Below are positions 2,022 to 54,060 of a stretch of 64,000 nucleotides of DNA, one piece after another. A model generated the notes under the pieces. That model had not been told where the DNA came from. It did no database searches and saw nothing but the letters and a program-made list of their open reading frames with translations. The translations under genes were made by a program, and so were the position numbers. Origin of the DNA: Convolutriloba macropyga (lineage: Eukaryota); assembly GCF_964194025.1 (NCBI RefSeq), contig NC_134472.1:51336001-51400000 (forward strand), written 5' to 3'. Every line of letters begins with the position of its first letter. Position 1 is the stretch's first letter.

Positions 2022-4199
2022 GTACGTAATTTGAGCCAATGTTAACTTGAATTTGAAAAAAGCTCCAGTTTCAAGGAAATTGCTGGTAACTCAGGTCGAG
2101 AACAGCTTGGAAAATACGGCAGAAATAACTAGAATTTGAACAAATTCCAAATTTGAAATTTTAATAAATTAGCGAAAACCGTTTATTTGACTGGAGGTAG
2201 AATGGGAAGAAATGATCGGATTTTCTCAGAAAGGTCACTCTAATTTCTGGCAACATTTCTTTAACTAAAAAATCATGAAGTGCTGTTCTGCATTTGCGCA
2301 GAACATCAGATTGGCTGTTCGCATTCAGTACTGTGAAAACAAGGTCCCGAGATTTAAAAATCGTTCCAACTTCGGTCATTTGTTGATTTTTTGTTAAACT
2401 CTGTTTCTTTCCAACCGATTATTACGTTCAGATTCTACTCAGTTCGTCCATTTTGGCGAAAATCTAATCGAGCTTATGCACCTGGGCATAAAAATGACAA
2501 GAAAATGAGGAGCTGATAAGACAAATTTTCGGCAAATCAATCATAGATAACATTCTGCTTGTTAGGGATCTAAGAGCAACTCATACTAAATATTATCTCT
2601 TTTGCACGCACTTAGTTGATAATCATGAAAGTTTATTAGTAATAACGACAGTATTCTCGCAAAAAATCTCATGCTTTACAGTCCTTATTTTGAAAGAGGA
2701 AAATTTTAATTCTGATTAAGTACAGGCGAAGAGAAACAAGTTACAATCTTGAATTCGTCGAAAATCCAAAAAAGTAAAGTAGTAATTTTATTTTAATAGC
2801 TTTTGAAAAAACACCAATTTTTTCAATGCGAATTCGTTTTTAGCCAATTCTATCCGAAAACGAAATTCCACCGGTACAAAATTTTTGAGTAAATTTACTT
2901 GTTTTTATTTCTACATTTCATTTTTTCTATGCTATCACATTGTGCGTGCGAAATATACTTGCGAACTTCGCGTACGAAAAGGCGTTGCCCTATATGGAAA
3001 TTACAGTCAGTGTTTTACACTTTTGAACTGGAAGTTGAAAAGTTAAAATTTGGTTGAAATTTGACTTTGAATTTGAAAAAAGTTGAAATTCCCTGACAGC
3101 CGAAGGTAACTACTTTTCACGATTATTTGATGCTGTTGCTCTTAATCGTTTTGTGGAAACTACTTTTATAAATTTGAGCGCATTGAACGGAGGTGGCTAC
3201 TTGAAAGCGCCATTCACTTTCTTTGGAAGTAGTTTTTGGTACCTGTAGACGCTCGTAGTGATTGTTATTCATTTTCATTTACACATGTTCCCCCAAAGAA
3301 TAAAAAAATTAGAGAAAAATCAAAAAATATCTATCCACCTATCCAACCACAACCAAAAAAAGACAAATGAGCAGAAAAGATGTCTTTCAGTAAGCCACTG
3401 GAAAAAGAGTGAAAAAAACATTGAAAATGAAAACGGAACTGTTACAAAAGTTTTGCAAAAACTTTGATTTAATTTGTACTTTTTTTCAGTTGGATTCCAG
3501 CTTTTTGGCAATTTGTTTAGAATCTAATAGATTTTGTTCGAAATAATTAGCGCTGAGACCAAATGTGTGGTTCTAGGTTTTTGATGTGTTTATTTTACTC
3601 CTTTCTCTTGTTGAGGTTTGAGTTTTGTAATGTCAATAAAATATCAAAACATTTTCGAGGTGCTCATGTTCAACTGTGCTTTTTAAATACGTTTTTTTTC
3701 ATTGAAAAAAATGTGTTCTTATGTCACGTGTGTGAACAAATTCAGTCCCAACTGACTTCCTTCACTATCAAACTGACTTTTCATTTCTATCAAAATTTCT
3801 TTGCTTGTATTGATTTTACGATTTAAGATGAACAAACAAAATATTATTTTTGAGAGGGTTATTTGAAAAGCAACAGTTTGGTCTAAGTTGTCGTCATAAT
3901 CGTCACTCGAAAAGCCAAAAACTGTTTCTCGTAAGTGTTTTGGCACTTAATTTGCTTTATTTGTAATTTCAAACTTTAGTTATAAAAAGACAGTTTTGGT
4001 CACTCAGCTTTGTTTGAAAAACTGAATTTTGTAAGGCGTTCTTTTTAGTCGAACAAATTGCATTCATTATCTAAAGAAAAAGAACTAGATATTGAAATTT
4101 TTTATGCGATATTTCATAAATGTCAAACAAATATCCGCGAGCAAACAAAATATATTTTTAATTTCAATTTTTTTCTTTTTTAGTATATCTTATTTGAGG

Positions 4200-6189: not shown

Positions 6190-6552
6190 TTGTCTTCTTG
6201 TTTCATAATTCAATCTTGGTTGCAATTGAACGAGGTCTTTTAGGAAACCAATACAATGGATATTGTTTTCATTTTCAATCGCAAAAAACAAGCAGACGTT
6301 GTCTTAAATAGAGCTCATAGATTGTGTTTATATTAAATTTAAAAAAGATATTAAGAGGGGAATTTTTTGGAAAAAAAATAAGTCTGATTATCTTTTTTTG
6401 AATTTTAAGCAGGGGTTCCAAATTGTATTTTCTGACTGAACCATGATATCATCCCTTTGAATCCCAATCTTTCAAGACAACACAATTGACCTGGAATTGA
6501 GTTTTCGCATTTATTTGCTTATTTAATAAAAATTTGGTATTTTACTGTTCAG

Positions 6553-7089
6553 CTGAAGCTTGAGGAGGTACTCACGGTCACCGTAGAGCAAAAGATAGAG
6601 GTCGAGAGTTTGAAACAGCAACAGCATGAAACCCTTCAGAAATTGAGCAGAAGTGAAACCGATCGGATAACTTGCGAAAAAAAACGTCAAAAAACAATTG
6701 GGCAATTACAGAAACAAATTAAGTTACTTGAAAAACAGTCAGCAGAATTTGTGAAGCAAATTGATGCCAAGGAAAAGGAATGCAAACGACTGCAATTGAA
6801 ACTTCATCGCAGCCATGAAGAAGCTTCTTCATATTTCGACCATTTTTACTCGGAATCAATTGAAAGCCAGGAAGAAATGATAGAGAAACAAAAAGTAGAC
6901 ATAACAAAACTACGTACCCAGATAGAGGAGAAAGACTCCCAAATCAGAGATTACGCCATTAAGGGAATCGCAGCTTTTAAAAAAGAAGAAGAAACGTCAC
7001 TTAAAAACGAGGAACTGTTGCATGAGCTGGAAGAAAAAGGAAACACTATAGAAGAACTTACGAAACAAGTTGCTGCCTCTAAAGAAGTC
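6553..7089 (+). CDS. Exon 2 of coiled-coil protein gene
   Basis: TTTACTGTTCAG acceptor ending 6552; frame LKLEEVLTVTVEQK... continuous with ORF 6610-7254; strong E/K/Q/L heptad character; GTC|GTAAGT phase-0 donor at 7090 (alternative CAG|GTTAAG at 7201). Confidence 0.75.
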
Positions 7090-7227
7090 GTAAGTCCACA
7101 ATCTACTAACAAACTATCCGATAATGTCGTCGTGTATAGCTTAAGTGACTGTGGTGAAATCAATGAGAAAATCTGCCGTGCAAAAAAACGAGTTCTGCAG
7201 GTTAAGATGCAACAGGACATATTCGAA

Positions 7228-7461
7228 GTGACGGAGTCACGTAACCTTGCTTGAAACACCCACTTATTAGAAAGTCTTAAAAATTGACATTTTAAATCGA
7301 ATAATATGGCGGTCTAGACACTGTACGTGAGGGTTTCTATCAGTTTTGATAATCAAAATTATGCAAGTGCCAGTTTCAAAATTCTATATCTCTGCCGTGC
7401 CAGTGACAGACTTGAAAGTGGCTTGAAAGGGCATATTTCAAGCACGGTTACGTGGATCCGC
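7228..7461. mobile_element. Small MITE in intron 2
   Basis: 25-bp inverted repeats with 3 mismatches (7232-7256 and 7436-7460); 8-bp direct repeat TATTCGAA on both sides (7220-7227, 7462-7469) as a possible TSD. Confidence 0.65.
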
Positions 7462-7937
7462 TATTCGAAAACTTGATTTGCATCTCAAACTGCAGCGCAA
7501 TTCTAGAATAATGCCTGATTTTCGTAGTGACAGAGAACCGTTTCATTGACACACACAACCGTTTCTTCATCAGAGTCTCACAACCCATACTTAATTTCAT
7601 CATGTACACTGTATGTTCCCAGGTTGACGTTTAACACCCAAAACCGTTGTCCACATTTGCCCATATAGTTCTCCCATTTTTGTTTATATATGATGATGAG
7701 AACATCAAAATGGTGCAATGGGGCAGTCCTTTGGAGTAAGAGCCCCCCCCCCCCCCCCCCCAAAAGAAATAAATTGTGAGAAAAAGCTGAATTGGCCTGA
7801 GTTCTGAATTAAATCTAGGAGTTGTCTCGCAAAAATATTGTAAGCTTGAACAGTTTTTTTTTACGAATTGAAGTCTCGTCGCTTTCGTTTAAATATAATA
7901 CATTCATTAATTCTGAAAGCCATTTGACATTTTTTAG

Positions 7938-8339
7938 GTGGCTCAATTGGAGCAGAATTTGAAAACTGAGAAAGACAGGGCCGATCGTGTCCAGGACGAA
8001 TACGAGCGAGACAAGGAAAAATGGAGCAAACAAAAAGAGGGAACAATGAATATGGTAATGCAAAAGTCAGACACGATCCCTACAAGCAGTTCAATGCAAA
8101 AACAGCAACGAAAGTCTCTCTATGAACATGTTGGCCGCCAATTAACAGGTGATCACAACGAAGATAATGAAAATTTCGAGGAAACAAAGAAACAAAACAA
8201 GAAGAAGAGTCGCTTTTGGCAATTATCAGGAAAGCAGAAAAGGGCCAAAACTCTTGATGAGTATGTATCAACTCCACTTTACGGACAATATGAAACTATT
8301 GACGAGTATTCTGCATATGCAACTGAAGCAGAACATTAA
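7938..8339 (+). CDS. Terminal exon 3 of coiled-coil protein gene (about 465 aa total if exons 1-3 are joined)
   Basis: TTTTTTAG acceptor ending 7937, phase 0; splice gives ...QVAASKEV|VAQLEQNLKTEKDRADRVQDEYE..., continuing the coiled coil; TAA at 8337-8339; AATAAA at 8639-8644. Confidence 0.75.
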   Translation: MAQLEQNLKTEKDRADRVQDEYERDKEKWSKQKEGTMNMVMQKSDTIPTSSSMQKQQRKSLYEHVGRQLTGDHNEDNENFEETKKQNKKKSRFWQLSGKQKRAKTLDEYVSTPLYGQYETIDEYSAYATEAEH

Positions 8340-8906
8340 AACTCATAGAGCATCAAACGAAAGCTCAGTAAATGCTTAGTTACACACAACAGTTTCACTG
8401 ATAAGATGCACCAGATGGAACACACTAAATTTTTCATTATATTCAAACGCAAATAATATTTTACAACTCTCGTGTACAATTTTTTCAAAAAAAACTTTTA
8501 CTATTTTTGATTTTCATGTCAATGTAAGTTTACGTAAAGCAGTGTTTGTATGAAAACTTTCTATGAATTCCTAAAATTTTCATTCTATAAGGGCTTTTTT
8601 CTTATCATTAACTCGTCGGTCTTGTTTCAAAATTCCGAAATAAAAGAATTAAAATAGCCGAAATATATTGGATCTAAGTCTGCTCTATTCGCAATTCCAC
8701 ACGTCTCCTTAGAGTAGTTCGTTGGAAAAAAGACCCACTAGTAAGGCTAATTACTTCGAAGCCCTCACTGTTTGACAAAAAGTGTCATATCAAGCACTTC
8801 CTTCAACCCCTATATGAAGTTTGTCGGGGCCTCATTGTTTTTTACTCAATTGCCAATAGTAAAGTGTTAGACTTTCTGTAGTTCTCAAGAACGTAATAAC
8901 CAATTA

Positions 8907-9650
8907 ATTCGAGTGAAGAATCTCGATATGGGATTTTTTGCCAGGCTCCCAATTCAATTGTTTTATTACATGATCAACCAAAATTTTTATGAAACAGTGA
9001 GAATGAAGCGAAAACACTGTTGGCGTTGACTCCACAACCCAGCCAGACAAAAGACAAACAACTTGAATAGAGCACTAAGCCAATGCTCATCCGGTTTTTA
9101 AGGCTACTTCAGACCTATACTGGGTTAGCCCAGTTCGCCAAGTCTCTTAAGGTTAGGCAACTTTATCCACTTAGACGCTTCACTATTCATCCACTGGAGA
9201 GAGCACAGCTCGCTATCACTCTGAGTATAAGGTCGTCTCAGTGTCTTAGTGGTGCACACTGTCGTTAATGTAGCCATCTCTCCGTTGTTGTTCTCCTTCT
9301 ACAATCTCAATTTAGCATACTTTTTGAAAGGCGTATCGTTAAATAAATCAAATGCCAGTCAATAAGATTGTAAATAAAAAAAGAGCTTAAAATTAGTTTT
9401 ATGGTAGAGAGATCTACCTTTCTTTTGAAGAAGTTAATTAAGCTGTACATAAGAATGCACTTCCTTTATGAGAAAACTAAAAAAATTAGAACTACACAAT
9501 ATTAAGTAACATATGGTCAATTTTCCTGTAGAGCAACTAGCTAAAAACTTCCATGTGTTCCAAGCAAGTAATGGTACGGACTATACTTACCAGTACAAAG
9601 CCGGTATCAACAAAAAATAAGACTCAAAACAAGAAAGAGTAGAAAATTAG
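8907..9650 (+). repeat. ~750-bp repeat, copy 1 (copy 2 at 16884-17630; partial copy at 16675-16860)
   Basis: Collinear diverged match, e.g. CTGTTGGCGTTGACTCCACAACCCAGC and GTGTTCCAAGCAAGTAATGGTACGGACTATACTTACCAGTA occur in both full copies. Confidence 0.9.
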
Positions 9651-12600
9651 CTGACTAAATTAGAGAAAAAGTATGGTTACCACAATACATAATTTTAAAC
9701 AATTCTTTCAAATTTTATTTTATCCCCCCGACGGTAACAATAAGTCCACGAATCACATTATAACTAAACTTTGTCTTTTCCCAATTGGTTGTTCACAAAC
9801 AGCATCCAACTGTGGAAAGAGTCCAACGGCGGGTGGACAGTAGATGGAATTGACAATGTAGAAATACGGTTTGTCCGAACAAAACCGATCGCTGCATCAT
9901 CCTTTTTAGCACTTCCAGGTGACCTGGCTAGATGTAGGCATCTGCTTAACATTCGCAATCGACAGGATGAGAAGTGCTTCCTCTACTGCTACACCGCTCA
10001 ATACCATAGCACCATTGGACCCAAACTATTTTCTGACAATACATCCTGGCGACAGAAAACAAACCCCATAATGTATGGACCGGAAAACCCCAGAGCAAAA
10101 CAACCCGTTGGAACATTTATGAGGCCAATGGCTTTCCATCAAATGGAAAATTTTGAGCAGCTGAACAATGTTCGTTTCAATGTTTTCAGACACTCGAACA
10201 ATAAGTTGATACCGTTTCGCATTTCAAAAAATCAAAATTTCAGCTTTGACCTTGATCTGCTCTTGCTAAGTGATGGCACAATGCCTCACTATGTCCTTAT
10301 CACCAACATCAAAGGACTAATTCACAAGTACAAGCAGATAATTCAACGCGCAGACAATCATTTATGCCGCAATTGTTTCCACCTCAGTACTTCACTAGGT
10401 AGACATGAAAAGCATGAACAAATTTGTCATCAGAACACTCAGGCAATAATAAAAATGCCAAAAACTGAGCAGCGAAACTTTGAATTCAAAAATGTTCAAG
10501 CCCGGTGGTTTGCCCCAATTGTTGGTTTTTTTGATCTCGAGTCAATTATTGAACCCGTTGCTGGCAGTAGTCAGGAAAACTCAGTAACGAAAGCGCTGGA
10601 AGAGCACAAACCATGTAGCTATGCTCTACTTTTTGTTGCCCTGGATAAAAAAAAACCTTTCTTCTTTGATATAAAAAGCGGACCGAATGTGATGAAAGAT
10701 TTTGTCAAGACACTTGAAAGAATTGCTAAGGATATTTATGATGTGAAGCAATAACACAAAAACTTTTCCGGTGAGGTAACAACACCCAAGCAAGACGCTA
10801 CCTTGTGTTGGATATGTGACACCGAATTGAACAAAAACGCTCAAGATCCAACCGTACTAGACCATTGTCATTTCACTGGAACATTTTTAGGATGGGCTCA
10901 CGCACAGTGTAACTTGAAACGCAGAACTCTCAACTACACTCCCCTCTTCGCCCACAACTTAGCAAATTATGATCTTCACCATGTAGTACTGGCACTACAG
11001 AACATAGATGAGAGGAACACAATTTCGATTGTACCCAGCACAAGCTAAAAATTCATCTCGTTGCAAATAGGAGTTCACATCAAAACAACTCAAAACAAAA
11101 AAGGTGTGTGGACCAGTCAATATGAATACATCAGACTTATGGACTCATGTAAATTCATGAACACTTCACTTGACAGGTTGGTGCAGAACCTGCCAGCAGA
11201 CCAATTCAACATGCTTGAACAACATTTCGAAAATTGGCCCGAGTCATCAGTCAAACTGTTGAAACAAAAGGGTTCGTTCCCTTATTGCTATATAGACAAT
11301 TTCGAAAAACTGCAGGAGCTTCAGCTTCCTCCACGCAATTTGTGGTCAAATAGCTTGCAGCAGTATGAAGTCACAGTAACTGAAGATGAATACGCAAGGG
11401 CAGTTGAAGTTTTCAATTTATTCAAGTGTCAGAACATTGGGAAGTACTACAACTTGTACTTGAAAACAGATGTTTTTCTTCTCGCTGCTGTAGTTCTATG
11501 CTTCCGGAAGGTATGCTATGAGACATATGGACTGGATTGTTGTCAATACTACACGGCATCTAACTTGTCAGGTGATGCCATGCTGAAAATCTGCAACCCC
11601 GAACTCCATCTTCTTACAGAGAGAGAACATCTCGATATGGTGGAGAGCTTGATAAGAGGTGTGAGCTCAGTATACAGCAAGCGACTTTGTAGGGCAAACA
11701 ATAAGTTTCTGCCGGACTACAAGCCGAAGAATATTTCTTCGTTCATTGTAATGATTGATGCAAATAACCTCAACGGTGGAATCATGGAAAAGTTCCCGCT
11801 TCCTCTTCGTGGTGAGTTTGAATTATTTGACAAGAGCGAATGGACCGACGCAAATGCACAAGAAATATTGAATCGAATCTTTAAAACACCGGACGATGAT
11901 GAAATAGGATATATTGTTGAAGTAGATTTCAGTTATCAAGATAGCTTGCATGACCTTCACTCATATTTTCTATTGGCACCCGCAAAAGAAGCAATAAATG
12001 AATGCTGGCTGAGTGAATATCAAAGCGATTTATTAGAAGAGATGCAAATCAAAAAACCTCCTCCGGTTAAAAAGCACATTCAGACGCTTTTTGATAAACA
12101 GAACTATACACTGCACTATCAAACGCTGAAACTCTATGTTGAATTGGGATTGGTAGTAACTAAGCTTCATCGAGTGCTATCATTCAGACAAGAAAAGTGG
12201 TTGGCCCTCTACGCGAAACTGAATACGGAAAAACGGAAGCAGGCGAAGAATAAATTTGAAGAGGATTTTTTCAAATTGATGGTCAACTCATCGTTTGGAA
12301 AAACCTGTGAGGGTAAACGCAACCATTTGAAAATCAAGTTGACCCGCACTGAAGAAGAAACTTTGAAGTGGACAGAAAAGCCCGAGTATCAGTCGTCGCA
12401 GATCATTACTGAAGATCTTGTTACTGTATGTCTTCAGCAATCGGAAATACTTTGGGACAAGCCAACAATAGTAGGTGCCTGTATATTGGATTTGGCGAAG
12501 AAGTTCATGTTCGAGTTCCACTACAAAGTCATGAAGAAAAACTTTGATTGTAATTTGCTTTATTCAGACACAGACTCTTTTGTGTATGAAGTGCGCTCGA

Positions 12601-12798
12601 GAGACTTTTTTGCGGAACTACAGCGGAAAAAGTCGGTCGCTGAACAGTTTGATTTTTCAAACTTCCCATCTCAACACCCATTGTACAGCAGGGAGAATGC
12701 CCGTGTCACGTTGAAATTCAAAGATGAGATGGGAAGCAAGCCAATTGCAGAGTTCTGTGGACTGAAGCCTAAGCTGTATTCTATCAAGCTCGCCGAAG

Positions 12799-12951
12799 GT
12801 AAGTATAAGTCTTTTTCACTACCACTACTGCACCATACATACAAAGACATTCAACAAAAGCAAGCATACGCTAGACGTTAACATACAACTAAGTTTTTTA
12901 CTGCAGGCAGGAAGACCAGAATGAATTGGAAACAAAACAATTTTTTTTCAG
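12799..12951 (+). other. Probable spliceosomal intron within the polB gene
   Basis: GAAG|GTAAGT donor, TTTTTTTTCAG|G acceptor; 153 nt with an in-frame TAA (12879-12881); removal restores KPKLYSIKLAEG-PAKQSAKGV. Confidence 0.8.
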
Positions 12952-13277
12952 GTCCCGCTAAGCAGTCAGCAAAAGGAGTCACAAAAGATGCACGCCGCAA
13001 TATGAAACATGAGCTGTACAAAAGAACTCTCTTGGGGGGTGAGGTGGTGCGTTTGCTCAACACCCGAATAGCATCCAGCAACCACAGGCTTCACACGATT
13101 GTTGTCAACAAGAAGTCGCTGTCAGGCTACGATGACAAACGTTTCATCTTGAGTGACCAAGTTTCAACGCTGCCCTATGGTCACAGTGCAATAAGAGAAG
13201 ACATGTTTTTCCGGGCAATAGTGAAGGAACCTGATTGGGGCCTGGATGATTTTAGCGAAAGCGAGCAAGAAAGCGGG

Positions 13278-13511
13278 CAGCAGGCCCAGGATAGCTCGCT
13301 GCAGGCCCAGGATAGGTCGCTGCAGGCCCAGGATAGCTCGCAGCAGGCCCGAGGTAGCTCGCAGCAGGCCCAGGATAGCTCGCAGCAGGACCAGGATAGC
13401 TCGCAGCAGGCCCAGGATAGCTCGCAGCAGGCCCAGGATAGCTCGCAGCAGGACCAGCATAGCTCGCAGCAGGCCCAGGATAGCTCGCAGCAGGCCCAGG
13501 ATAGCTCGCAA
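13278..13511 (+). repeat. Coding 21-bp minisatellite, 11 units encoding QQAQDSS
   Basis: Unit CAGCAGGCCCAGGATAGCTCG; explains the several overlapping repetitive ORFs on both strands. Confidence 0.97.
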
Positions 13512-15189
13512 CCGGTAAAAAATAAAAACCAGCAGAAAAACAAGCACCAAACACAACAGTCAGCAAACATTCCACAAACTAATAGCATTCTAAACACAAG
13601 TTTCAACTCAATTCCCAACCCAGGTCTTCACCAGCGAATTTATAGCGAGGATGAATTGAATGAAAATTTGGTAGATTTTGACAATTTGTCAGAGTTGTCG
13701 GACAGTGGTTCTTCTACGGACGCAGCTTGCGATGGTTTTATTCAAAGTCAAGCGATAGAAGATTCAGATAGCAGCCCCCAACCTCCAATCACAATTGACG
13801 AACAACCGCCAGCCAACCTCCCAATAACAATTGAACAACAAAATCTGCAAGATCAACCACCTACCAAAAAGAGAAGACGAGCAAGAATCATAGAAAGTAA
13901 TAGCGAAGAGGACTGAAGAACCAAAACAAAACTAAAAACTCTTGTCTCATCCTGTGTTTTTACCTATATTGTCCAAAAAACACTGGCAGTCGGGCTTATA
14001 TGGCCCAATTGACTTTTTCAAAAGTGAAATTTGTACCGTCCCCCCTTTTTGGGCTAGAAATTTCTTGTGTATAGTGCGAGTTTTTGATGGTGCACGCGTG
14101 AAGTGTGAGAAAGTGAAAGGTGTAGTCCAACGTACCAGGAGGGGTTGAACTGCCACAGCGTGTGACAGAGTACAGTTCTTCCTGCACATATCAGACTGTA
14201 TCAAAATTCGTTTTTGCAACAAAACTTGTGTCGGAGTCAACTTATTAAGTCAGCTTTTCCGCTGCCACACATGCAGGGTTTCTCTTATTCATTTTAAACC
14301 CAATAAATTTCAGTAGAACCGGATTTTTTGAAATATAGCTCCTACCCATATATCCGGTCTACTAAAAAAGATTTTTTTTACTCAATTGTTGCCCAGGGTG
14401 ATGTGTAGTTGTCCGTTGATACCCTCTTGGACAACGCGATCTTGAATATCAAAAATTCGTGGATTCCTACACTTTCCACAGTGGCAAAAATGGAGGTCGA
14501 TTACACTTCTGTTGAGACAGAAAACCACTTTTCTCAGGTTTCTGATTGGATCTAAAAATTTTTATCACGTTCGTCAAATGATTTTAGGAACTTCATAAGT
14601 CGTCCAATTTCATTCATCATTGTTCTCCGTTTCAGTATTTAATCTGTATTAGGAATTTTTTTTAATGATTAGGAGTTTTTGGAAGAACGTCTTTTTTCCA
14701 AAAAGAACAAGAAACTTGCTGTTGACCTTTTGAGAATTTCTCAAATTGCAAAAAAAAGTAGTTTTCATATATATTAAGCAAAAAATTGTTATAACCTACT
14801 TGGTTTGCTACTTGATTCTACCATTAGTTCCTGTTTATCGTTCATTCAATCTGACTGAAACAGCCTTAGTATCATAACAAAAAGAAAAGATCGGTGAGCT
14901 CAACTTATTTTTTTAGACAACAATTCTAAAATCACTTTGACAAATTTTAAAAATCTGCACAACAAATACAATCAAATTATAGCCCCCCCCCAAAAAAAAA
15001 ATATTTACAATGATGGGGGGCTTTGCAAAAAATTGTTATCTGACCACTAAGCTGGGGGGGGGGGCTATAAAGAAAAACCCAAATTTTTCAGAAGTTTTCT
15101 CGTTTGTACCCCGTCCCAATGGGGAAATTAAAAATATTCAGAACTAAAACTCACACTTACGTAATAAGAACGTTGATCTCCTCTTGTAT

Positions 15190-15287
15190 TCTGCTGGATG
15201 TAGCAGAATATCAAAACATCAGTTGATTGACCCGCAGTTGAGAGTTCTGCTGGATGTAGTAGAATATGAAAACACCAGTTGATTGAA
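15190..15287 (+). repeat. Two-copy direct repeat, 56-bp period
   Basis: TTCTGCTGGATGTAGYAGAATATSAAAACAYCAGTTGATTGA occurs twice. Confidence 0.85.
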
Positions 15288-16198
15288 CATCACAGTTTGA
15301 GAATTTTTCAGAAAAAAGTCGGCAATTATTTTTCATGAATCCTGCTTTGATGAAAAAATATTTATACTATAATTCGTTTTTAAAAATATTAGCTGACTAT
15401 TTGTTGAATTATTTGGTTTATAGGTTTAAGTTGAATTTTTAGTTTCAGATAGTAAAAGTCTCCCGAAACAATTCTTTATCTGTTCACAAGAAAAAAAATC
15501 ACAAGAGAGACTTTCACTGTTGAGCAAAACACAAAATTAAAAATAAATTGCCAACTTTTTATGTGAATGTTCAAGCAGGCTGATTGTAAAAAGAGCTGAA
15601 TATATAGGAAGCAATAACTAGCAAGCTGAATGTATAGGAAGCAAAATAACTGGCAAGCTGGGTTGGAAATAGTCAAATTTACAAATGATAGCTATCTTGA
15701 AATATTCAATCTGGGATTTCTTATTTGCAACAGCAGGACTTCAGTTTTTTAACCAAAACATCGTAAAATTATCACAGCTTTGATCCCCCTTACCCCCTCT
15801 TTCATCTGCCGAAAATTAAGTTGTTTGAAGTAGGGGGGTTTCCAGAAAAATTGAGATAAATCCAGCAATTCTAATGTAATATTAAGTAAAAGTTAGGCTT
15901 GGGGAAGCTTTAATATACGTATGCTTTTATAGCTCAGACAGTATAGCGTGGTAATCCCCATAAGTCTTTTGTTTAGCACCGAGAAAGCAAAGAGTAATGG
16001 CGTCACTTTGTCTAGCACGACTGAGTAATATGGCGGGAAAGTTAGCAAAAGTTGCAAAGAGTTTGAACTAGTTTATAGCACCGATGAATGAATTAGCCGA
16101 ATAAAGCACCAAAGATTTGAATAAAATCAAAAATTAGGGGGGATGCCAGGGGGCGTTGTAAACTTACAAAAAAATTTGCGTTGCAGAAAATGTCCCAA

Positions 16199-16273
16199 AA
16201 GTGTCCCCCCTAGGGGGGGACACTTCATGCATTCCAATCTTAATACATAGTGTCCCCCCCTTTGAGACCCCTG
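16199..16273. mobile_element. Probable right end of a hAT/Charlie-like element with subterminal palindrome
   Basis: AAGTGTCCCCCC-TA-GGGGGGGACACTT palindrome (16199-16225), a third AGTGTCCCCCCC copy, then TTTGAGACCCCTG (reverse complement CAGGGGTCTCAAA, a hAT-like terminus); partner end not found. Confidence 0.45.
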
Positions 16274-16325
16274 TCAGTTTTTTATACTACTTCCAACAAC
16301 CACAACGCAAATTCTCACGAGATAA

Positions 16326-33030: not shown

Positions 33031-33086
33031 ATACACCACCCCAAAGCACCAGATTAGTGATCAGATAACCGACAGCCCCCCCCCCG

Positions 33087-34211
33087 TTATGGGACTCTCA
33101 TTGAGACCGAAAACCAATCCCGACTACTCATTGGCAGGGAGGTGCTGGTGGGCAAGAAGAAGAATGCGGGCTGGTTCGAGACACTAGCTGGCGAGAAACT
33201 GAGATTGAAAAGTTCAGCGGAGGCTGAGCTTGTGACAGTTAGCAGCGACGAGAGGTCAGTGGTTGCTGATCTAGTGTCTACGGCGAGTAACAGATCATCT
33301 GCGGTCTCTGATGACGAGAGTTGTGTATGTTCAGGTTGTAAACGTCGCTTCGACAATGCAAGAGGCTGCAAAGTGCATGAAGCCAGATTCTGCAAGTCTA
33401 AGAATTCGAAGAGTGTCAAAGACTGCGCGTCAAAGTTTGTTGGACTAGAGAAAACCCTCATTTGTCAGAAGTGCACTAGGAAATTCGCGACAGTGAAAGG
33501 GCGACGAATTCACGAGTCACGATGTTGCGGCAGAGAAAAGGCTGGAAGATCTCGCATTTTCTTCTGCAATTTCCTCGATCGAGATGGAGTGGAATTCGAA
33601 AATGTAGACGCTTTCAAATGTCTCGGTTCTTTCGTGAGCTTGCAACCTGGTGACCTAAAGGAAATCAGTGTCAAGCTGGCCGAAGGGAGACAGCGATTTG
33701 CGAGCTTTGAGAAGCTTTGGAAGAGCAAACAACTTAGTATTCCCCTCAAATGCAAGTTATACAGAGCTCTTGTGTTATCAGTGGTCTTATATAGCTCTGA
33801 AACGTGGATCATGAATAAATCAACGCAACGGAAACTTGAGAGCTTTCACACCAGTTGTCTGCGAAGGATACCATGTTTTTCATATATGGAGAGGGTGACA
33901 AATGAAGAAGTACTGGCTAGATCACGTATGTCGACACTTTCTGCAATGATCATGATTAAACGGTTGAAATAGTTTCGCCATGTCTTGAGGATGAATGACG
34001 ATCGTCTAGCGCTTCGAGCCTTCACCTGGGAGCCGACAGAATAATATCGTTATGCTAAACGAGCTCCAGGGGGTCAACGCAAGACGTGGCTGGACCAACT
34101 TGAAGAAGATTGCTCAAGGATCAACATGAGCTACATCACGTAACGACAAAAAACGAAAAAAGAGTCTAAATCCCGCTTCAACAGTTTTGTCGAACAGCAT
34201 TTCCTGGATTA
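33087..34211 (+). mobile_element. Internally deleted RTE-like non-LTR retrotransposon with two N-terminal zinc fingers
   Basis: ORF 33142-33972: CSGC...HEARFC and CQKC...HESRCC, followed by the RTE RT C-terminus (VDAFKCLGS, LWKSKQLSIPLKCKLYRALVLSVVLYSSETW, FHTSCLRRI, RVTNEEVL); frame continues past stops as HVLRMNDDRL...RAPGGQRKTWLDQLEEDC. Confidence 0.85.
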
Positions 34212-34799: not shown

Positions 34800-36240
34800 T
34801 AATTCGGTTAATCGTTTTTTGCTTAAGCTTTCAATAGCTAAATTTGTGATGTTACAGATAATATTTAAAAGTTGACTAGGACGCCTCCAGAAATTTTCAT
34901 CTGCTTTTTTCGTTGTTGTTTGGTTAATGTTTATTAGCTGAAATTGTCTGGTATTTGGTTGATCATCACAGTTTTTGTTACTAGTAATTGGAGTATTGAT
35001 ATTGTAATTTCCTGAGAGAAAAGCGATTTAAAAAAGTAGATCGTGAAATTCTATATATAAGGAGAGAGGAAGTAAATAGAGCTTTCCAAGCCTCTTCTTG
35101 TAATTCAATTCCCAGTTGTTTAGGCTCCAACTGGTAGCTTTCTTTTGAACGCTCTCAATCTCTTCCGTCTCCGTTTTGTTAGCGAACCAGGCTTGAGTTG
35201 CATATGTAACTATTGTTACGACATATCCTGCGTACGCATTGAGTTTTGCGCTTAGTTTTGGTGGACGTTGAAGTGTTTCTGATTAAGAAATAGAACGCTT
35301 TCAGTGCCTTTGAGCTTATTTTTTCAACATTAGGTTTCCAGTTCAGCTTTGGCGTCAATGTAATGCCTAGATCTTTTTGCTCGTTTTGGTAAAATGAAAT
35401 TTTGTTGTTTACACCTAACTTGGGTTGGTTTTGACTTTTGATTGGTAAGATATAACACTTATTTTCGATTACTGTCATTTTATTGTTTAAACACCATTAG
35501 GATTTGTTTATATCGTATTGCATGTTTTCACTATTCGTTGCAACAAGCTTGAAATCGTCTGCATAACCAAAGGTTTCACACTTAGTTACTTGTAGAGGAG
35601 GATCGTTAACACAATTGATGAAAAAGAGGACCTAGAAGTGATCCTTGTGGAACACCACTTGTTACTTGCACTGTTTCAGAGTTAAAATCCTTAAGCTTTT
35701 CTTATTGTTTTCTTTTACCTAAGTAGTTGGCAATAATTTTCAAGAAGTTACCGCCAAGCCTAGCTTTTCAATTTTCTGTCCAGATACAGAACCAAAAGTT
35801 CTTCATTACCACCAAATTTGTTGTAGAGGAACAGCAACATCTGTGTTACCACAGACCTGTGTCTTCGAAAACCATGTTGTGCATTGTGTAGTGTCGTTTT
35901 TACAATGTCATACAGTTCATTAAATATAACTTTTTCGAAAACCTTTGATGTGTTGCAGAGAAGGCTTATAGGTCTGTATTGCTTCACGTCTGCTCTGTCT
36001 TCGTCTTTAAAGACGTGAATAACTTCACTTATTTTCCAAAACGATGGAAAATAACCTTTCGATAGCGCAGCCTTAAACACTATCAGTAAGGATTTCGAGA
36101 GGGCAGGCAGGTTTTTGAGCACAAGATTACCTATGTTGTCCGGGCCGCTTGCTTTTTCTAAGTCATTATCTCAGGGTGGCTAAGATGATTGTTCCTTTAT
36201 ATTAGAAAAAAAATGATGTTCGTTGGCATCAATTTGTTCT
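34800..36240 (-). mobile_element. 5'-truncated CR1/Jockey-type LINE (RT and C-terminus), frameshifted
   Basis: KASGPDN, QYRPISLL, QHGFR, GVPQGSLLG, GYADDFK (~35550-35570), QKDLGITLTPKLNW. Confidence 0.9.
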
Positions 36241-49845: not shown

Positions 49846-52800
49846 GAAAGAAAGAAAGAAAGAATAAATTTCTCCAAATAGTAGACAGCAAATTAAATCA
49901 ATTTAATTAAAACATTTACTTAATCATATAACATAACAACAAAACGTATCTCGGAGAGGACAGATAGACGGGGTTATTAAACCCACCTAGTATCTGCCCT
50001 GGCTAAAGTTAAATAGTTACAGTTAAATATTTAACATTCCATGACCAGGTCACCGGTGCCAACGCCTAGGCAAACAAACCTCAGAACGCTGTCATAGAGA
50101 CATGAACAAAGAACAATGCTTAATCGGAAGAACGACTAACGCTGTGTCTTTGCTAACGAGAGAGACGTTGATTCCTAGCTACTATGTATTAAATAAAAAA
50201 AAATTTTCTGCAGTTCGGTTTTCTTCGTCGATTTTCTATGTGTAGACTTCGTTATTTTGCAAAAATAATACCATTTTTGAAACCTCGGCACTTACGAAGT
50301 AAGTGCCGGAACAATTTTTGACAGGAGTTCATGGAAAAGAAAAGAGAAAAAAAATTATTTAAAAATATAGGATACTAGCTCCTCATTATTCAGCAAGTAA
50401 CTTTCTTTGAATTTATGATAAAATTGCGATATTTTTTTTGCCAATTTTTGTCTTCAATATTTTGTGCTAGAACTTTCTCAGTATGTTAAATAACCTTGCA
50501 CAACGATATGAAATAGAGGATCGCTCAAACTGCTTTTTAAAGGAGGGAATTTTTAGGTAATTTTTGTTAGACCTAGTGTTTCTGGTACTGTGCTCATATT
50601 CAGAGTTCATTTGGACAAGTTTCGCTATGCATCTTTTTCAATGATTTCAGGACAAATTTCAGCAGCTCATATAAATGAAACTCGAATACTGTTAGCAATT
50701 TATTAGAGATTAAAATGTCCCTGGAACTACCTGACAATTTCCTAAAGTAAATGAATTTTAAATTTTTTTCTGCAGATTGTAGATAGGTAAAAGCGACGAA
50801 TAACTGCAACAGCCATATACCAAAATACCGTATTGAATTATTGGGTTAACATTGCTTCGGTAGTAATCAATTAACTGTTTTCGGGCTACATAGTGACGCA
50901 GCTTACATATAATACCACACTGTTTTGAGAGTCTTTTCTTAATATATTCGATATGTGATTGAAAACTTAACTTACTATCTACCAAGATTCCGAGATACTT
51001 ACAAAGATTTCCAACTTCAATGAAAACATCATCAAACTTAAGCACTGATTTGGAAGCACTATGTTTGTTCCCTATATTCATTTGTACGGTTTTTCCATAT
51101 TTAGTATTAACTTATTAGCAATCAACCAATTATTGATGTTCTGCAGATCTTCTTGCACTGAATTATTGTCTTTATTGATTGCGGTGAGGTTTGTATCTTC
51201 CGCAAATAAAATAACATCAAGAGATTTGCAAACTGTTGGCAGATCATTGATATAAATTAGGAACAATAACGGACCCAAAATTGAGCCTTGTGGAACCCCA
51301 CAAACTATGGAATTCCACGATGAACAGGCCCCATTAACAATAACCCGCTGCTGTCTCCCATTTAAGTATGATGTTATCCAAGTTAAAGCTGGGCCCCTTA
51401 TACCAGTGTTTTCGATCTTTTTTAATAAGATATCGTGCTCAATGGTATCAAAAGCTTTTTTTCAGATCAAGAAAGAAACTGATAGCTTTTGCATTTTGGC
51501 AATTCAATCTTTTTTTTCCGACTAATTCAACAAGAGCGTCAATTGTACTGTGTTTGGCACGAAACCCAAATTGCTTATTGAAAAGCAAATTATGATATTC
51601 CATGTAGGCATATATGCGAATGAACAAAGCACGTTCTATATTTTTACTCCAAACAATTAGAAGAGAAATTGGTCTGTAGTTATTTTCATCTAGTTTTGAT
51701 CCATCCTTGTGAAGGGGAATTACTTTAGCCTTTTTCAGATCATCGGGAAACATTCCTTCTTCAAATGATTTATTGATTACCTGAGTTAGGTATGGAATCG
51801 TGATGTTTGATGATAACTTTACTATGACATTAGAGATATCATCATCACCGGATGAAAATTTATTGTCTAGATTTTCAATGATTTCTCTTACCTCGTCAAT
51901 GGTTATTGGTTTTAGATACATGGAGTGGTTATCTTCGTTCATCTCAGGTAAAGGAACGTGTTTGAGTTTGTCAACTTCGGACCAACATTGGTGAAGAATG
52001 TGTCAAACTGCTCAGCAATGTCAGCGCTGCTGGAATCAGTGCAACGTTCACTACATGAGTTTAGCGCCGGTACTTGCGAACTTTTGCGATTAGTTCCCTT
52101 TATTTCATTGATTAACTTATATGTTTGCCTTGAGTCTCCCATACATGATTCAAATATTTGTCTAAAAAAATCTTTTTTAGCTTTTTTGACACATGTTTCA
52201 AACTTTTTGCGTAATACTTTGAATTTTGTCTCTGCCTCATTATTTTGCGGATTTTGTTTCATGTTTCGATGTGCTTTATTTTTTTTTGAAGCGCAAGTTT
52301 TTAAGTGAGTTGGTAAACCACTTCGGTACCTTAGACTTTTTATCGGTCAAGGATTTCAGAGGAGCATACTTGTTAGTGGTTTCCAGGAAAACTTTGTTGA
52401 ATTTAGTAAATAATTCATTGGTACTATCAGAATCTAGAAAGTGACATCGATTCCTTAGGCTCCAGTCTAAGTCAATTAAGTAGTTCGACAGTTGCTCTTG
52501 ATTTTTTTTAAAGCTTCTCTAAACGGCAGATAGTTTTGTTCAGTATCAACATTAATTAGCCACTTCATTAGGATAGGATAATGATCCGAGAAGTTTTCAT
52601 GAGTTAGTACACTAAAATCAGGGCTGGCCAAATTTTGATATATAAAGTGGTCTAGACAAGTTGCGGAGTTAGAAGTTTCCCTGGTAGTTTCCAGATTGGC
52701 AAGCTCAAAATCATTAGAAGATATCGTACATAAATAATTAGATTGTAATTGGTTCTTTACATTAATGTCAATATTAAAATCACCAGTTATAACGGTAGGG

Positions 52801-54060
52801 CAATTTAAGGACGTTAACTCATTCAAAAAATTATCCAATTTTTCGACGAATTTTAGTTTATTTGTTCTTGGTGGATTGTAGACAGTAGCCAATTTAAAGC
52901 TGTACTTTTTATACTCTAATGAGACAAGAAGGGTCTCTTCCATATCTGTTGAGTGTGTTTCTAACAAGGACATGGAATCCTGAATTTGTATCATCACACC
53001 TCCGCCATGTGTGTTTCTATTCTTAATTGCATTATTCTTATAGCCAGGAACCAATAAGGAATCGATGTCATCGTTATCAGTTAACCAAGTTTCGGTGAGA
53101 CATATTACATTTGGTGGAGACTCAAGACTATGAACAAGTGCTTCCAAATCATTAAGATTGACCAACGCTTGACCACCATAATATAGAGAATTGATTTTTT
53201 AAACTCTATTGTCACCTCCAGCTTTGACGTATTGTAATGTTCCTTCTCTTGACCAAACTTTCTGGCTTCTTGGACGTGGAGCTGGCTTCTTAGTCGGCAC
53301 TGGATGAGCAATAGAGATATCGTTTGCACTAACCTCAGCATCAAGTAAACTAGTAAGATCAACAACTCTGTCCATAACATCTGCAGAACTTTCAGGCATA
53401 CCAATTATTTGCACATTCTCTCGTCTGTTGTACGATTCCAGCATTTCACTTTCACATTTAGCTTTCAGGTCACTTCTTTCTTCGGCGTAAAAAACTGTTT
53501 CTTTAAATTCCCTCGTGATGTCTTCTCTCAAACTTTTAAGGCTCTCGTCAACGGCGGCTTTGATTTTCGTAGTCAGTTGATCTTGAATCGTTTTCATAAT
53601 ATCGGGCATTGACGAAGCTACTGTTGCTTGAATTGCTTCTTGAACCGTTTTAGTAAGGTCACTTTCATTGTCTTCCGGGCTCAATGCACTACATAGACGC
53701 TTGTTGTCTGCTTTTGCGAGAGGTGTTTGATCGTGGTATCTTAGATCTGGCATCTTTTGTGCGTCTTTACTCGGTGAAATAGTTATGTGTTGTGCGTCTT
53801 CACTCTGAGAAGTAGTCATGTTCGTTCTCTGAAACTATTTAATAAGTTTATCACAACAATTAGGCTAATGAAATGAAATGAAACGATAAATTTATCAATA
53901 GATGTAATTTTTCGTCCTAGAGACAACCTGCGGTTAAAATTAAGTCCCATTCTTCCAGCGGCTGATTTTGTTGTTTTGCTTCTACGATGTTTAAACATAA
54001 TCTCATTGTTATTGGTCAATAATTTTTGAACAAGCTCAAAACTCGGAGGGAGAGATCTGA
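49846..54060 (-). mobile_element. Near full-length CR1/L2-group LINE (ORF1 + EN-RT ORF2), frameshifted
   Basis: ORF1 53819-53199 (coiled coil, LESYNRRENVQIIGMPE, DISIAH, KVWSREG); EN ICLTETWL, GGGVMI, VYNPP, GDFNID, CLDHF, SDHYPI; RT NYRPISLL, QFGFR, FLDLKK, GVPQGSILGPLLFLIYINDLP, LFAEDT, KYLGILVDSKLSF; 3' (TTTC)n tail at ~49846-49863. Confidence 0.93.

Follow-up and report, generated by a model that had tools for sequence, protein, structure and literature searches.

Animal Polinton/Maverick elements (adintoviruses, eupolintoviruses) are about 20 kb long, are bounded by terminal inverted repeats and by target duplications of 6 bp, and encode an rve integrase, an A32-like ATPase, an adenain-like protease and a protein-primed PolB (pPolB). 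Their core genes have been described, and searched for, as single ORFs. The core genes of vertebrate Polintons are described as intron-free (PMC8097293) and those of nematode Mavericks as intronless, with introns only in cargo genes (10.1101/2022.07.12.499685), which agrees with what a first-pass annotation of the present locus had said of Polinton polymerases.

Mechanistically, there is nothing unusual about an intron in a nuclear DNA element, and several described systems bear comparison. Integrated Polinton-like elements of dinoflagellates (introner-bearing polinton-like viruses) also carry spliceosomal-type introns, which PMC12166617 presents as young, mobile and host-derived, whereas the intron described here is old, occupies a single site and has a body found only in a polymerase context. 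Ginger DNA transposons likewise have spliceosomal introns, one to four per gene and including one GC-AG intron (PMC2836005), but they are small, integrase-only elements that lack the polymerase and virus-like module of the element studied here. In the Drosophila P element, as set out in PMC7776569, it is again the last intron of the key enzyme gene, intron 3, whose retention gives a C-terminally cut protein; that enzyme, however, is a cut-and-paste transposase with proven germline-specific splicing, whereas here it is a replicative polymerase and regulation is hypothetical, so the likeness is one of analogy and not of kinship. Our literature search, which covered passages of main texts, found no Polinton polymerase described as having a conserved spliceosomal intron, and a prior notice is possible; nothing relevant was found in PMC8502044 (on introns), 10.64898/2026.07.28.741278, PMC6431247, 10.1101/2024.03.25.586562 and PMC11296320, and the introns found in PMC12220804 are group I only.

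Here we describe a Polinton family that resembles these animal elements in size, ends and gene content, and that differs from described Polintons in one conserved pPolB intron and an acidic tail of 100–250 residues. The comparisons of sequence indicate that the intron is real, of old date and spread through the clade, and that the replicase which carries it belongs to a canonical Polinton.

Results

The right-hand fragment of a Polinton/Maverick, about a third of an element of ~20 kb, occupies positions 9829–16291 of the window, the 64-kb stretch of DNA analysed here; all features are given on the forward strand. Both limits are shared by 94–96% matches to five other copies, and the sequence to the left of 9829 has no match to those copies. 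The pPolB gene starts with an exon 1 remnant (9829–12798, from the ORF list; PF03175, E=1.5e-10; PF02945, E=6e-6) whose 5' part is missing. This remnant encodes an Endonuclease_7-like insert, exonuclease and palm motifs and a KxY motif (12771–12779), and is interrupted by in-frame stops at 10752–10754 and 11046–11048. Exon 2 (12952–13916) is 59% identical to residues 891–981 of P0004, an uninterrupted relative. The right terminal inverted repeat (16154–16291) matches both ends of the five other copies and ends in the reverse complement of AGTAGT; it is the only one in the window, and an inverted-repeat search of the first 30 kb found no element ends. The window copy is a dead fragment.

The five other copies supply what the fragment lacks. 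They are 19.4–20.2 kb long, with terminal inverted repeats of ~138 bp at both ends that finish in AGTAGTA, which we take to be Polinton AGT-type ends, and with 6-bp target duplications that are exact in four (one of them a C6 run) and carry one mismatch in the fifth. An rve integrase, absent from the window fragment, is present in L056 (PF00665, E=3.2e-10), and an A32-like packaging ATPase (PF04665, E=6.9e-6) and an adenain-like protease (PF00770, E=1.9e-6 and 2.1e-4) were found in other copies, so that the Polinton identity proposed in the first-pass annotation is borne out by PF03175, repeats, target duplications and these three genes. The full element sketched there had also included capsids, for which we have candidates: conserved ORFs of 437 and 293 aa lie between integrase and protease, at capsid positions, with no match in Pfam, PHROGs or PDB profile searches. 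The putative capsid has 449 homologues, two of which (81% and 61% identical) are source-labelled as the acoel Convolutriloba macropyga, which makes an animal host likely, and its single-sequence model has a pLDDT of 31.7. For the integrase, both putative capsids, the ATPase and the protease, single ORFs are present in one copy or more, and the alignment of the integrase-to-protease module with a distant subfamily is unbroken. The search for further introns suggested earlier came up empty in the polymerase as well, where alignment to two uninterrupted relatives gave no second intron. The absence of introns from core genes, a descriptive and not a defining trait of Polintons, does not extend here to pPolB, which has one.

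Several other features of these elements and of their surroundings were observed. Compared with L066, L056 carries ~3.5 kb of accessory ORFs (6500–9999; 214, 128, 101 and 215 aa) between protease and polymerase; such ORFs occur in close subfamilies and not in the distant one, and three that were scanned had no Pfam match. L073 has two terminal-repeat matches (3158–3294 and 3786–3924) ~630 bp apart at its left end. In the window, coiled-coil-like ORFs lie to the left of the element (6490–7254 and 7938–8339), with no significant Pfam match and no match to the other copies, and broken ORFs at 33061–33972, 35760–36170 and 51078–53834 look LINE-like by eye (reverse transcriptase, endonuclease, ORF1-like).

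The two exons are separated by 153 nt (12799–12951) with the features of a phase-1 spliceosomal intron and an in-frame TAA at 12879–12881. It opens, at 12799, within a near-perfect 5' splice site, AAG|GTAAGTAT (12796–12806), whose complementarity to the canonical 5' end of the host U1 snRNA genes L174–L176 extends to 10 of 11 positions. It closes with a polypyrimidine tract and a likewise near-perfect 3' splice site, T8 and then CAG|G (12941–12952), the last intron base being 12951. When AG|GYAAGT donors and Y7CAG acceptors were counted on both strands of the whole window (4 and 22, respectively), 12799/12951 was the sole donor–acceptor pair at a spacing of 50–300 nt. The join is gapless against P0004, exon 1 ending at residue 887 and exon 2 matching residue 891 with its third full codon, and the intron first proposed from the window's letters stands on both counts. 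With an insert whose length of 153 nt preserves the reading frame, and with further stops in the copy that holds it, the window alone cannot exclude a decayed coding loop; it is the evidence of the other copies, given below, that excludes a loop with one nonsense change.

The insert has no Rfam match near threshold and its folding is not unusual (z = 0.94). Inserts of 57–153 nt are too short for a group I or II self-splicing intron. A second CAG within the intron (12904–12906) had been put forward as an alternative acceptor that would add 15 aa. It is present and in frame in the window copy, but YAG, frame and freedom from stops coincide in just 6 of 30 copies, so it is not conserved as an acceptor. 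The 3' part of the intron resembles a duplicated acceptor, with two T-run/AG blocks ~45 nt apart (12889–12906 and 12934–12951), a pattern also seen in L032, L034 and L042; acceptor duplication would account for the second AG at 12906. Four contig runs (one study, kind unspecified) cover the intron as DNA would and show no 12798/12952 joint, and since this coverage is DNA-like they carry no weight on splicing.

The genome was searched with DNA (41 matches; best 40 of 266 candidates scored) and with the exon 2 protein (best 150 of 2556 candidates scored), loci being picked by similarity rank and not at random; 59 were examined, with the duplicates L166–L169 removed before counting. The insert lies at the same phase-1 site in all 54 loci where both ends could be read. 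The remaining five comprise one imprecise deletion that retains the acceptor, two loci without the exon 1 end, and L044 and L046, shorter stretches that cover the positions of L070 and L071 without room for exon 1. Donors are GT in 22, GC in 30 and other in 2; acceptors are CAG in 47, TAG in 5 and CAA in 2. Insert length varies from 110 to 683 nt (for L036, 340 nt from a duplicated upstream donor and 110 nt from the near one), with lengths modulo 3 split 19/17/18. Only 2 of the 54 inserts are in frame and stop-free, so retention would stop or shift the frame in 52, and the first in-frame stop falls anywhere from codon 1 to codon 42.

The insert also evolves unlike the sequence around it. Against 13 distant copies, mismatches by codon position come to 0.047/0.020/0.297 for exon 1, to 0.053/0.054/0.250 for exon 2 and to 0.361/0.274/0.273 for the insert, which has no codon bias; the codon-conserved insert named in the first-pass annotation as a sign against an intron is thus not what the copies show. 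Between subfamilies ~70% identical in protein the intron bodies are unalignable, while the site is the same and the ends are kept, as had been expected of GT/AG conservation against body divergence, with GC joining GT at the donor. Conserved ends on a body that drifts in length, frame and sequence are expected of a U2-type intron, and the ends themselves are of that type: 52 of 54 donors are GT or GC, 52 of 54 acceptors are YAG, and a polypyrimidine tract and U1 complementarity are present. The other sign against an intron, copies lacking the 153 nt, was sought in two pattern searches that detect only motif-keeping copies, and no precise intron-less copy was found; among junction-pattern matches the intron acceptor precedes 47 of 47. 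The intron body has 37 matches in the genome, and all 30 that were fetched sit between polymerase exons. Reading frames are broken in the copies viewed in full; splice sites in such dead copies are no longer under selection, and 4 of 54 loci have a damaged end. These comparisons confirm that the intron was inherited by the whole Polinton lineage and is not a late insertion, in keeping with the intron-bearing lineage proposed at the outset.

Some copies have rearranged this region. The introns of L070 and L071 (683 and 649 nt) have bodies grown by a long T-rich low-complexity stretch, with GTAGTT and YAG ends kept, and L067 has a short duplication of the exon 1 end, donor included. Tandem repeats of the intron region occur at G000:C7:5651828-5656010 (~1.2 kb period), C16:33791948-33795499 and C12:47014550-47021880.

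Relatives from other sources place the intron in a wider clade. The 27 closest database polymerases divide into 13 that break off or acquire an insert 5–7 residues after KxY, 13 that are continuous and 1 ambiguous case; the remaining 93 include 90 that continue through the site and 3 that end upstream. Database protein clusters are uniform in their interrupted or continuous state. The continuous relatives P0002 and P0004 lie on short contigs and may stem from RNA or DNA, but several continuous members lie on contigs of 290–717 kb, which argues that true intron-less lineages exist and that the intron is dispensable for the clade. In metagenome DNA, 8 of 80 loci (L080–L084, L096, L156 and L159; about six lineages) carry GT...YAG phase-1 inserts of 57–101 nt that fall in the same hairpin loop and no more than one codon away from the site in the window, at protein identities of 50–55% for seven and 37% for one; KxY was unreadable in 13 of the 80, and 15 of the 23 flagged as interrupted were judged on visual inspection to be protein loops, frameshifts or failures of the pattern. 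Two of the eight introns, in L082 (63 nt) and L159 (57 nt), are in frame and stop-free. A metagenome scan with P0003 as query gave no match, and viral contigs gave no relative by single query and one distant locus by alignment query. On a quick, midpoint-rooted protein tree of 81 rows, with a poorly resolved backbone, every interrupted row falls in one 46-row group (SH-aLRT 99) that includes continuous members, against 0 of 35 rows elsewhere. The simplest reading of this distribution would be one gain and several losses of the intron.

Exon 2 encodes, in order, the last palm strand, the KG motif, the thumb, a YDDKR motif and a long, acidic, disordered tail. The P0004 model (pLDDT 85.9), ordered to residue ~979 and disordered after ~987, aligns over residues 120–945 with residues 5–575 of phi29 polymerase (Z 23.4, rmsd 3.6, 529 aligned; Foldseek E=4e-18). 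In this model the intron site (887–889) is the hairpin turn between strands 880–885 and 891–894, ~57 residues ahead of the end of the phi29 alignment. Exon 2 is thus predicted to supply the last palm strand, a presumptive equivalent of the thumb, as judged by the domain limits of phi29 polymerase, and the disordered tail, and an unspliced product would lack these parts. Beyond DDKR the acidic tail is mostly 100–250 residues long in the clade, compared with 25 (median) for 69 proteins outside it. In the window copy it ends in a cluster of basic residues and then hydrophobic and acidic/Ser ones (13866–13913), presumably NLS-like and SUMO-interacting-motif-like; such endings occur, by pattern match, in 55 of 102 exon-2 proteins and in several distant clade members. 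The tail also contains a 21-nt tandem repeat of 11 copies with Gln/Ser/Asp-rich coding (13277–13510), whose copy number varies among elements.

The history of the donor was followed on a quick, midpoint-rooted DNA tree of exon 1 with 55 rows. Its two outer lineages bear GT (GTAAGT/GTTAGT and GTAGTT). Within a group of 46 rows (SH-aLRT 95), five lineages carry GC donors (GCAAGT, GCTAGT, GCCAGT), and the group to which the window belongs, nested inside it (SH-aLRT 99), again carries GT; on the protein tree, which includes outside relatives, the outer GT lineages likewise take an outer position. As far as midpoint-rooted quick trees go, the donor likely went from GT to GC and back to GT while subfamilies multiplied. 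At +1/+2 every amplified subfamily has GT or GC, which are the two donor dinucleotides that the major spliceosome accepts. No other sign of selection for splicing is as strong as this confinement of multiplying lineages to GT and GC donors. Across the family GC outnumbers GT; C at 12800 makes up 61–70% of the depth in the four contig runs, depth not being copy number. In the host, whose genome of 1.18 Gb has intron-rich genes, the best donor at 32 myosin junctions was GT in 26 and GC in 6, a rough estimate in which the GC calls are mostly non-consensus and doubtful.

Three of the six host U1 loci that were read, L177, L178 and L179, have a variant 5' end, TTGATTACCTG in place of ATACTTACCTG. 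The variant alters the pairing partners of donor positions +5 to +8, and these loci score well above the Rfam cut-off.

Discussion

Our results support a model in which the insert is a routine intron, spliced by the host and required for full-length polymerase, a reading that we consider probable on the strength of sequence comparison; that splicing is routine, and not a switch, is taken by default. The element would be transcribed in the nucleus by the host, and the major (U1/U2) spliceosome would remove the intron, U1 pairing with a GT or a GC donor. The spliced mRNA would then yield a full polymerase, with thumb and tail joined to the rest of the enzyme. In most copies an unspliced mRNA would instead meet a stop inside the intron, and its product, missing the KG motif, thumb and tail, would not work as a polymerase. 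Since only copies that make polymerase, or are helped to it, would found new subfamilies, selection would keep the ends spliceable.

A second possibility, which we judge unlikely, is that the intron is real and also acts as a switch in the manner of P element intron 3. Retention would be under cell-type or small-RNA control, splicing would occur only where the element replicates, the retained form would lose the thumb but still carry terminal-protein, protease and exonuclease parts, and the ratio of the two forms would be set by weak GC donors. Part of the appeal lies in position, as the sole intron found in the polymerase gene sits close to the 3' end, ahead of an essential part, where retention would stop or shift nearly all loci, and there is the P-element precedent itself (PMC7776569). 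The placement of terminal protein and vOTU at the N-terminus of Polinton pPolB, as given in PMC11161782, would suit it too. The donors can be read either way: GC is in the majority, with some sites weaker still (GCCAGT, GCTAGT), and the host myosin junctions are by contrast mostly GT, but that host estimate is rough and small, and the subfamily of the window went back to a strong GT donor and multiplied. Some acoel genomes use GC-AG often, which would make GC donors simply tolerated. Truncation, moreover, is not universal, the introns of L082 and L159 being open in frame; where a stop exists its position varies, and intron-less clade members exist. Extended to a widespread Polinton clade, the single polymerase intron would by analogy be a P-element-like replication switch, with GC donors favouring retention, a proposition that we hold to be doubtful; as part of the same joint reading, splicing in permissive cells would add the thumb together with a predicted nuclear-targeting, SUMO-binding tail.

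A reading without splicing is very improbable, whether the insert serves as a spacer that separates two genes, giving two proteins, or is passed by recoding. A long open frame does follow the stop (344 aa in the window), and gene callers list exon 2 as a protein of its own (102 matches). However, the KG motif has no conserved start codon ahead of it, conservation falls exactly on GY..AG and T-tract-YAG, the exon ends meet without a gap against an uninterrupted relative, and insert lengths in all three frames exclude one fixed read-through or frameshift. Least probable of all is a decayed coding loop, or a mobile piece (introner or self-splicing intron) that landed after the death of the element: a length divisible by three with a single stop in the window copy, protein insertions accepted by the same hairpin in distant polymerases (for example, L108 and L116) and the introners of dinoflagellate polinton-like viruses (PMC12166617) speak for one or the other, but the insert lacks codon bias and is present in all subfamilies and in other sources, and a mobile piece sits poorly with body matches found between polymerase exons, the Rfam result and the ordinary fold. 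Loop and late insertion are thus largely refuted, and an ancient introner origin is possible.

If the intron is a routine, inherited part of the polymerase gene, nuclear transcription and dependence on host splicing would be implied, and such dependence bears on whether the Polinton lifestyle is that of a transposon, a virus or both. There is also a practical side: exon 1 alone, at ~1,190 codons, passes a 900-aa ORF filter, such as that given in 10.1101/2023.08.22.554363, yet lacks the thumb, and gene callers already split the two exons into separate proteins. With one intron in many subfamilies, GT and GC donors and intron-less sister lineages, the family offers a natural experiment on splice sites. 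Elsewhere among the database polymerases, P0054 and P0105 end soon after the FHYK motif, upstream of DTDS, perhaps because other lineages have an intron at a second site.
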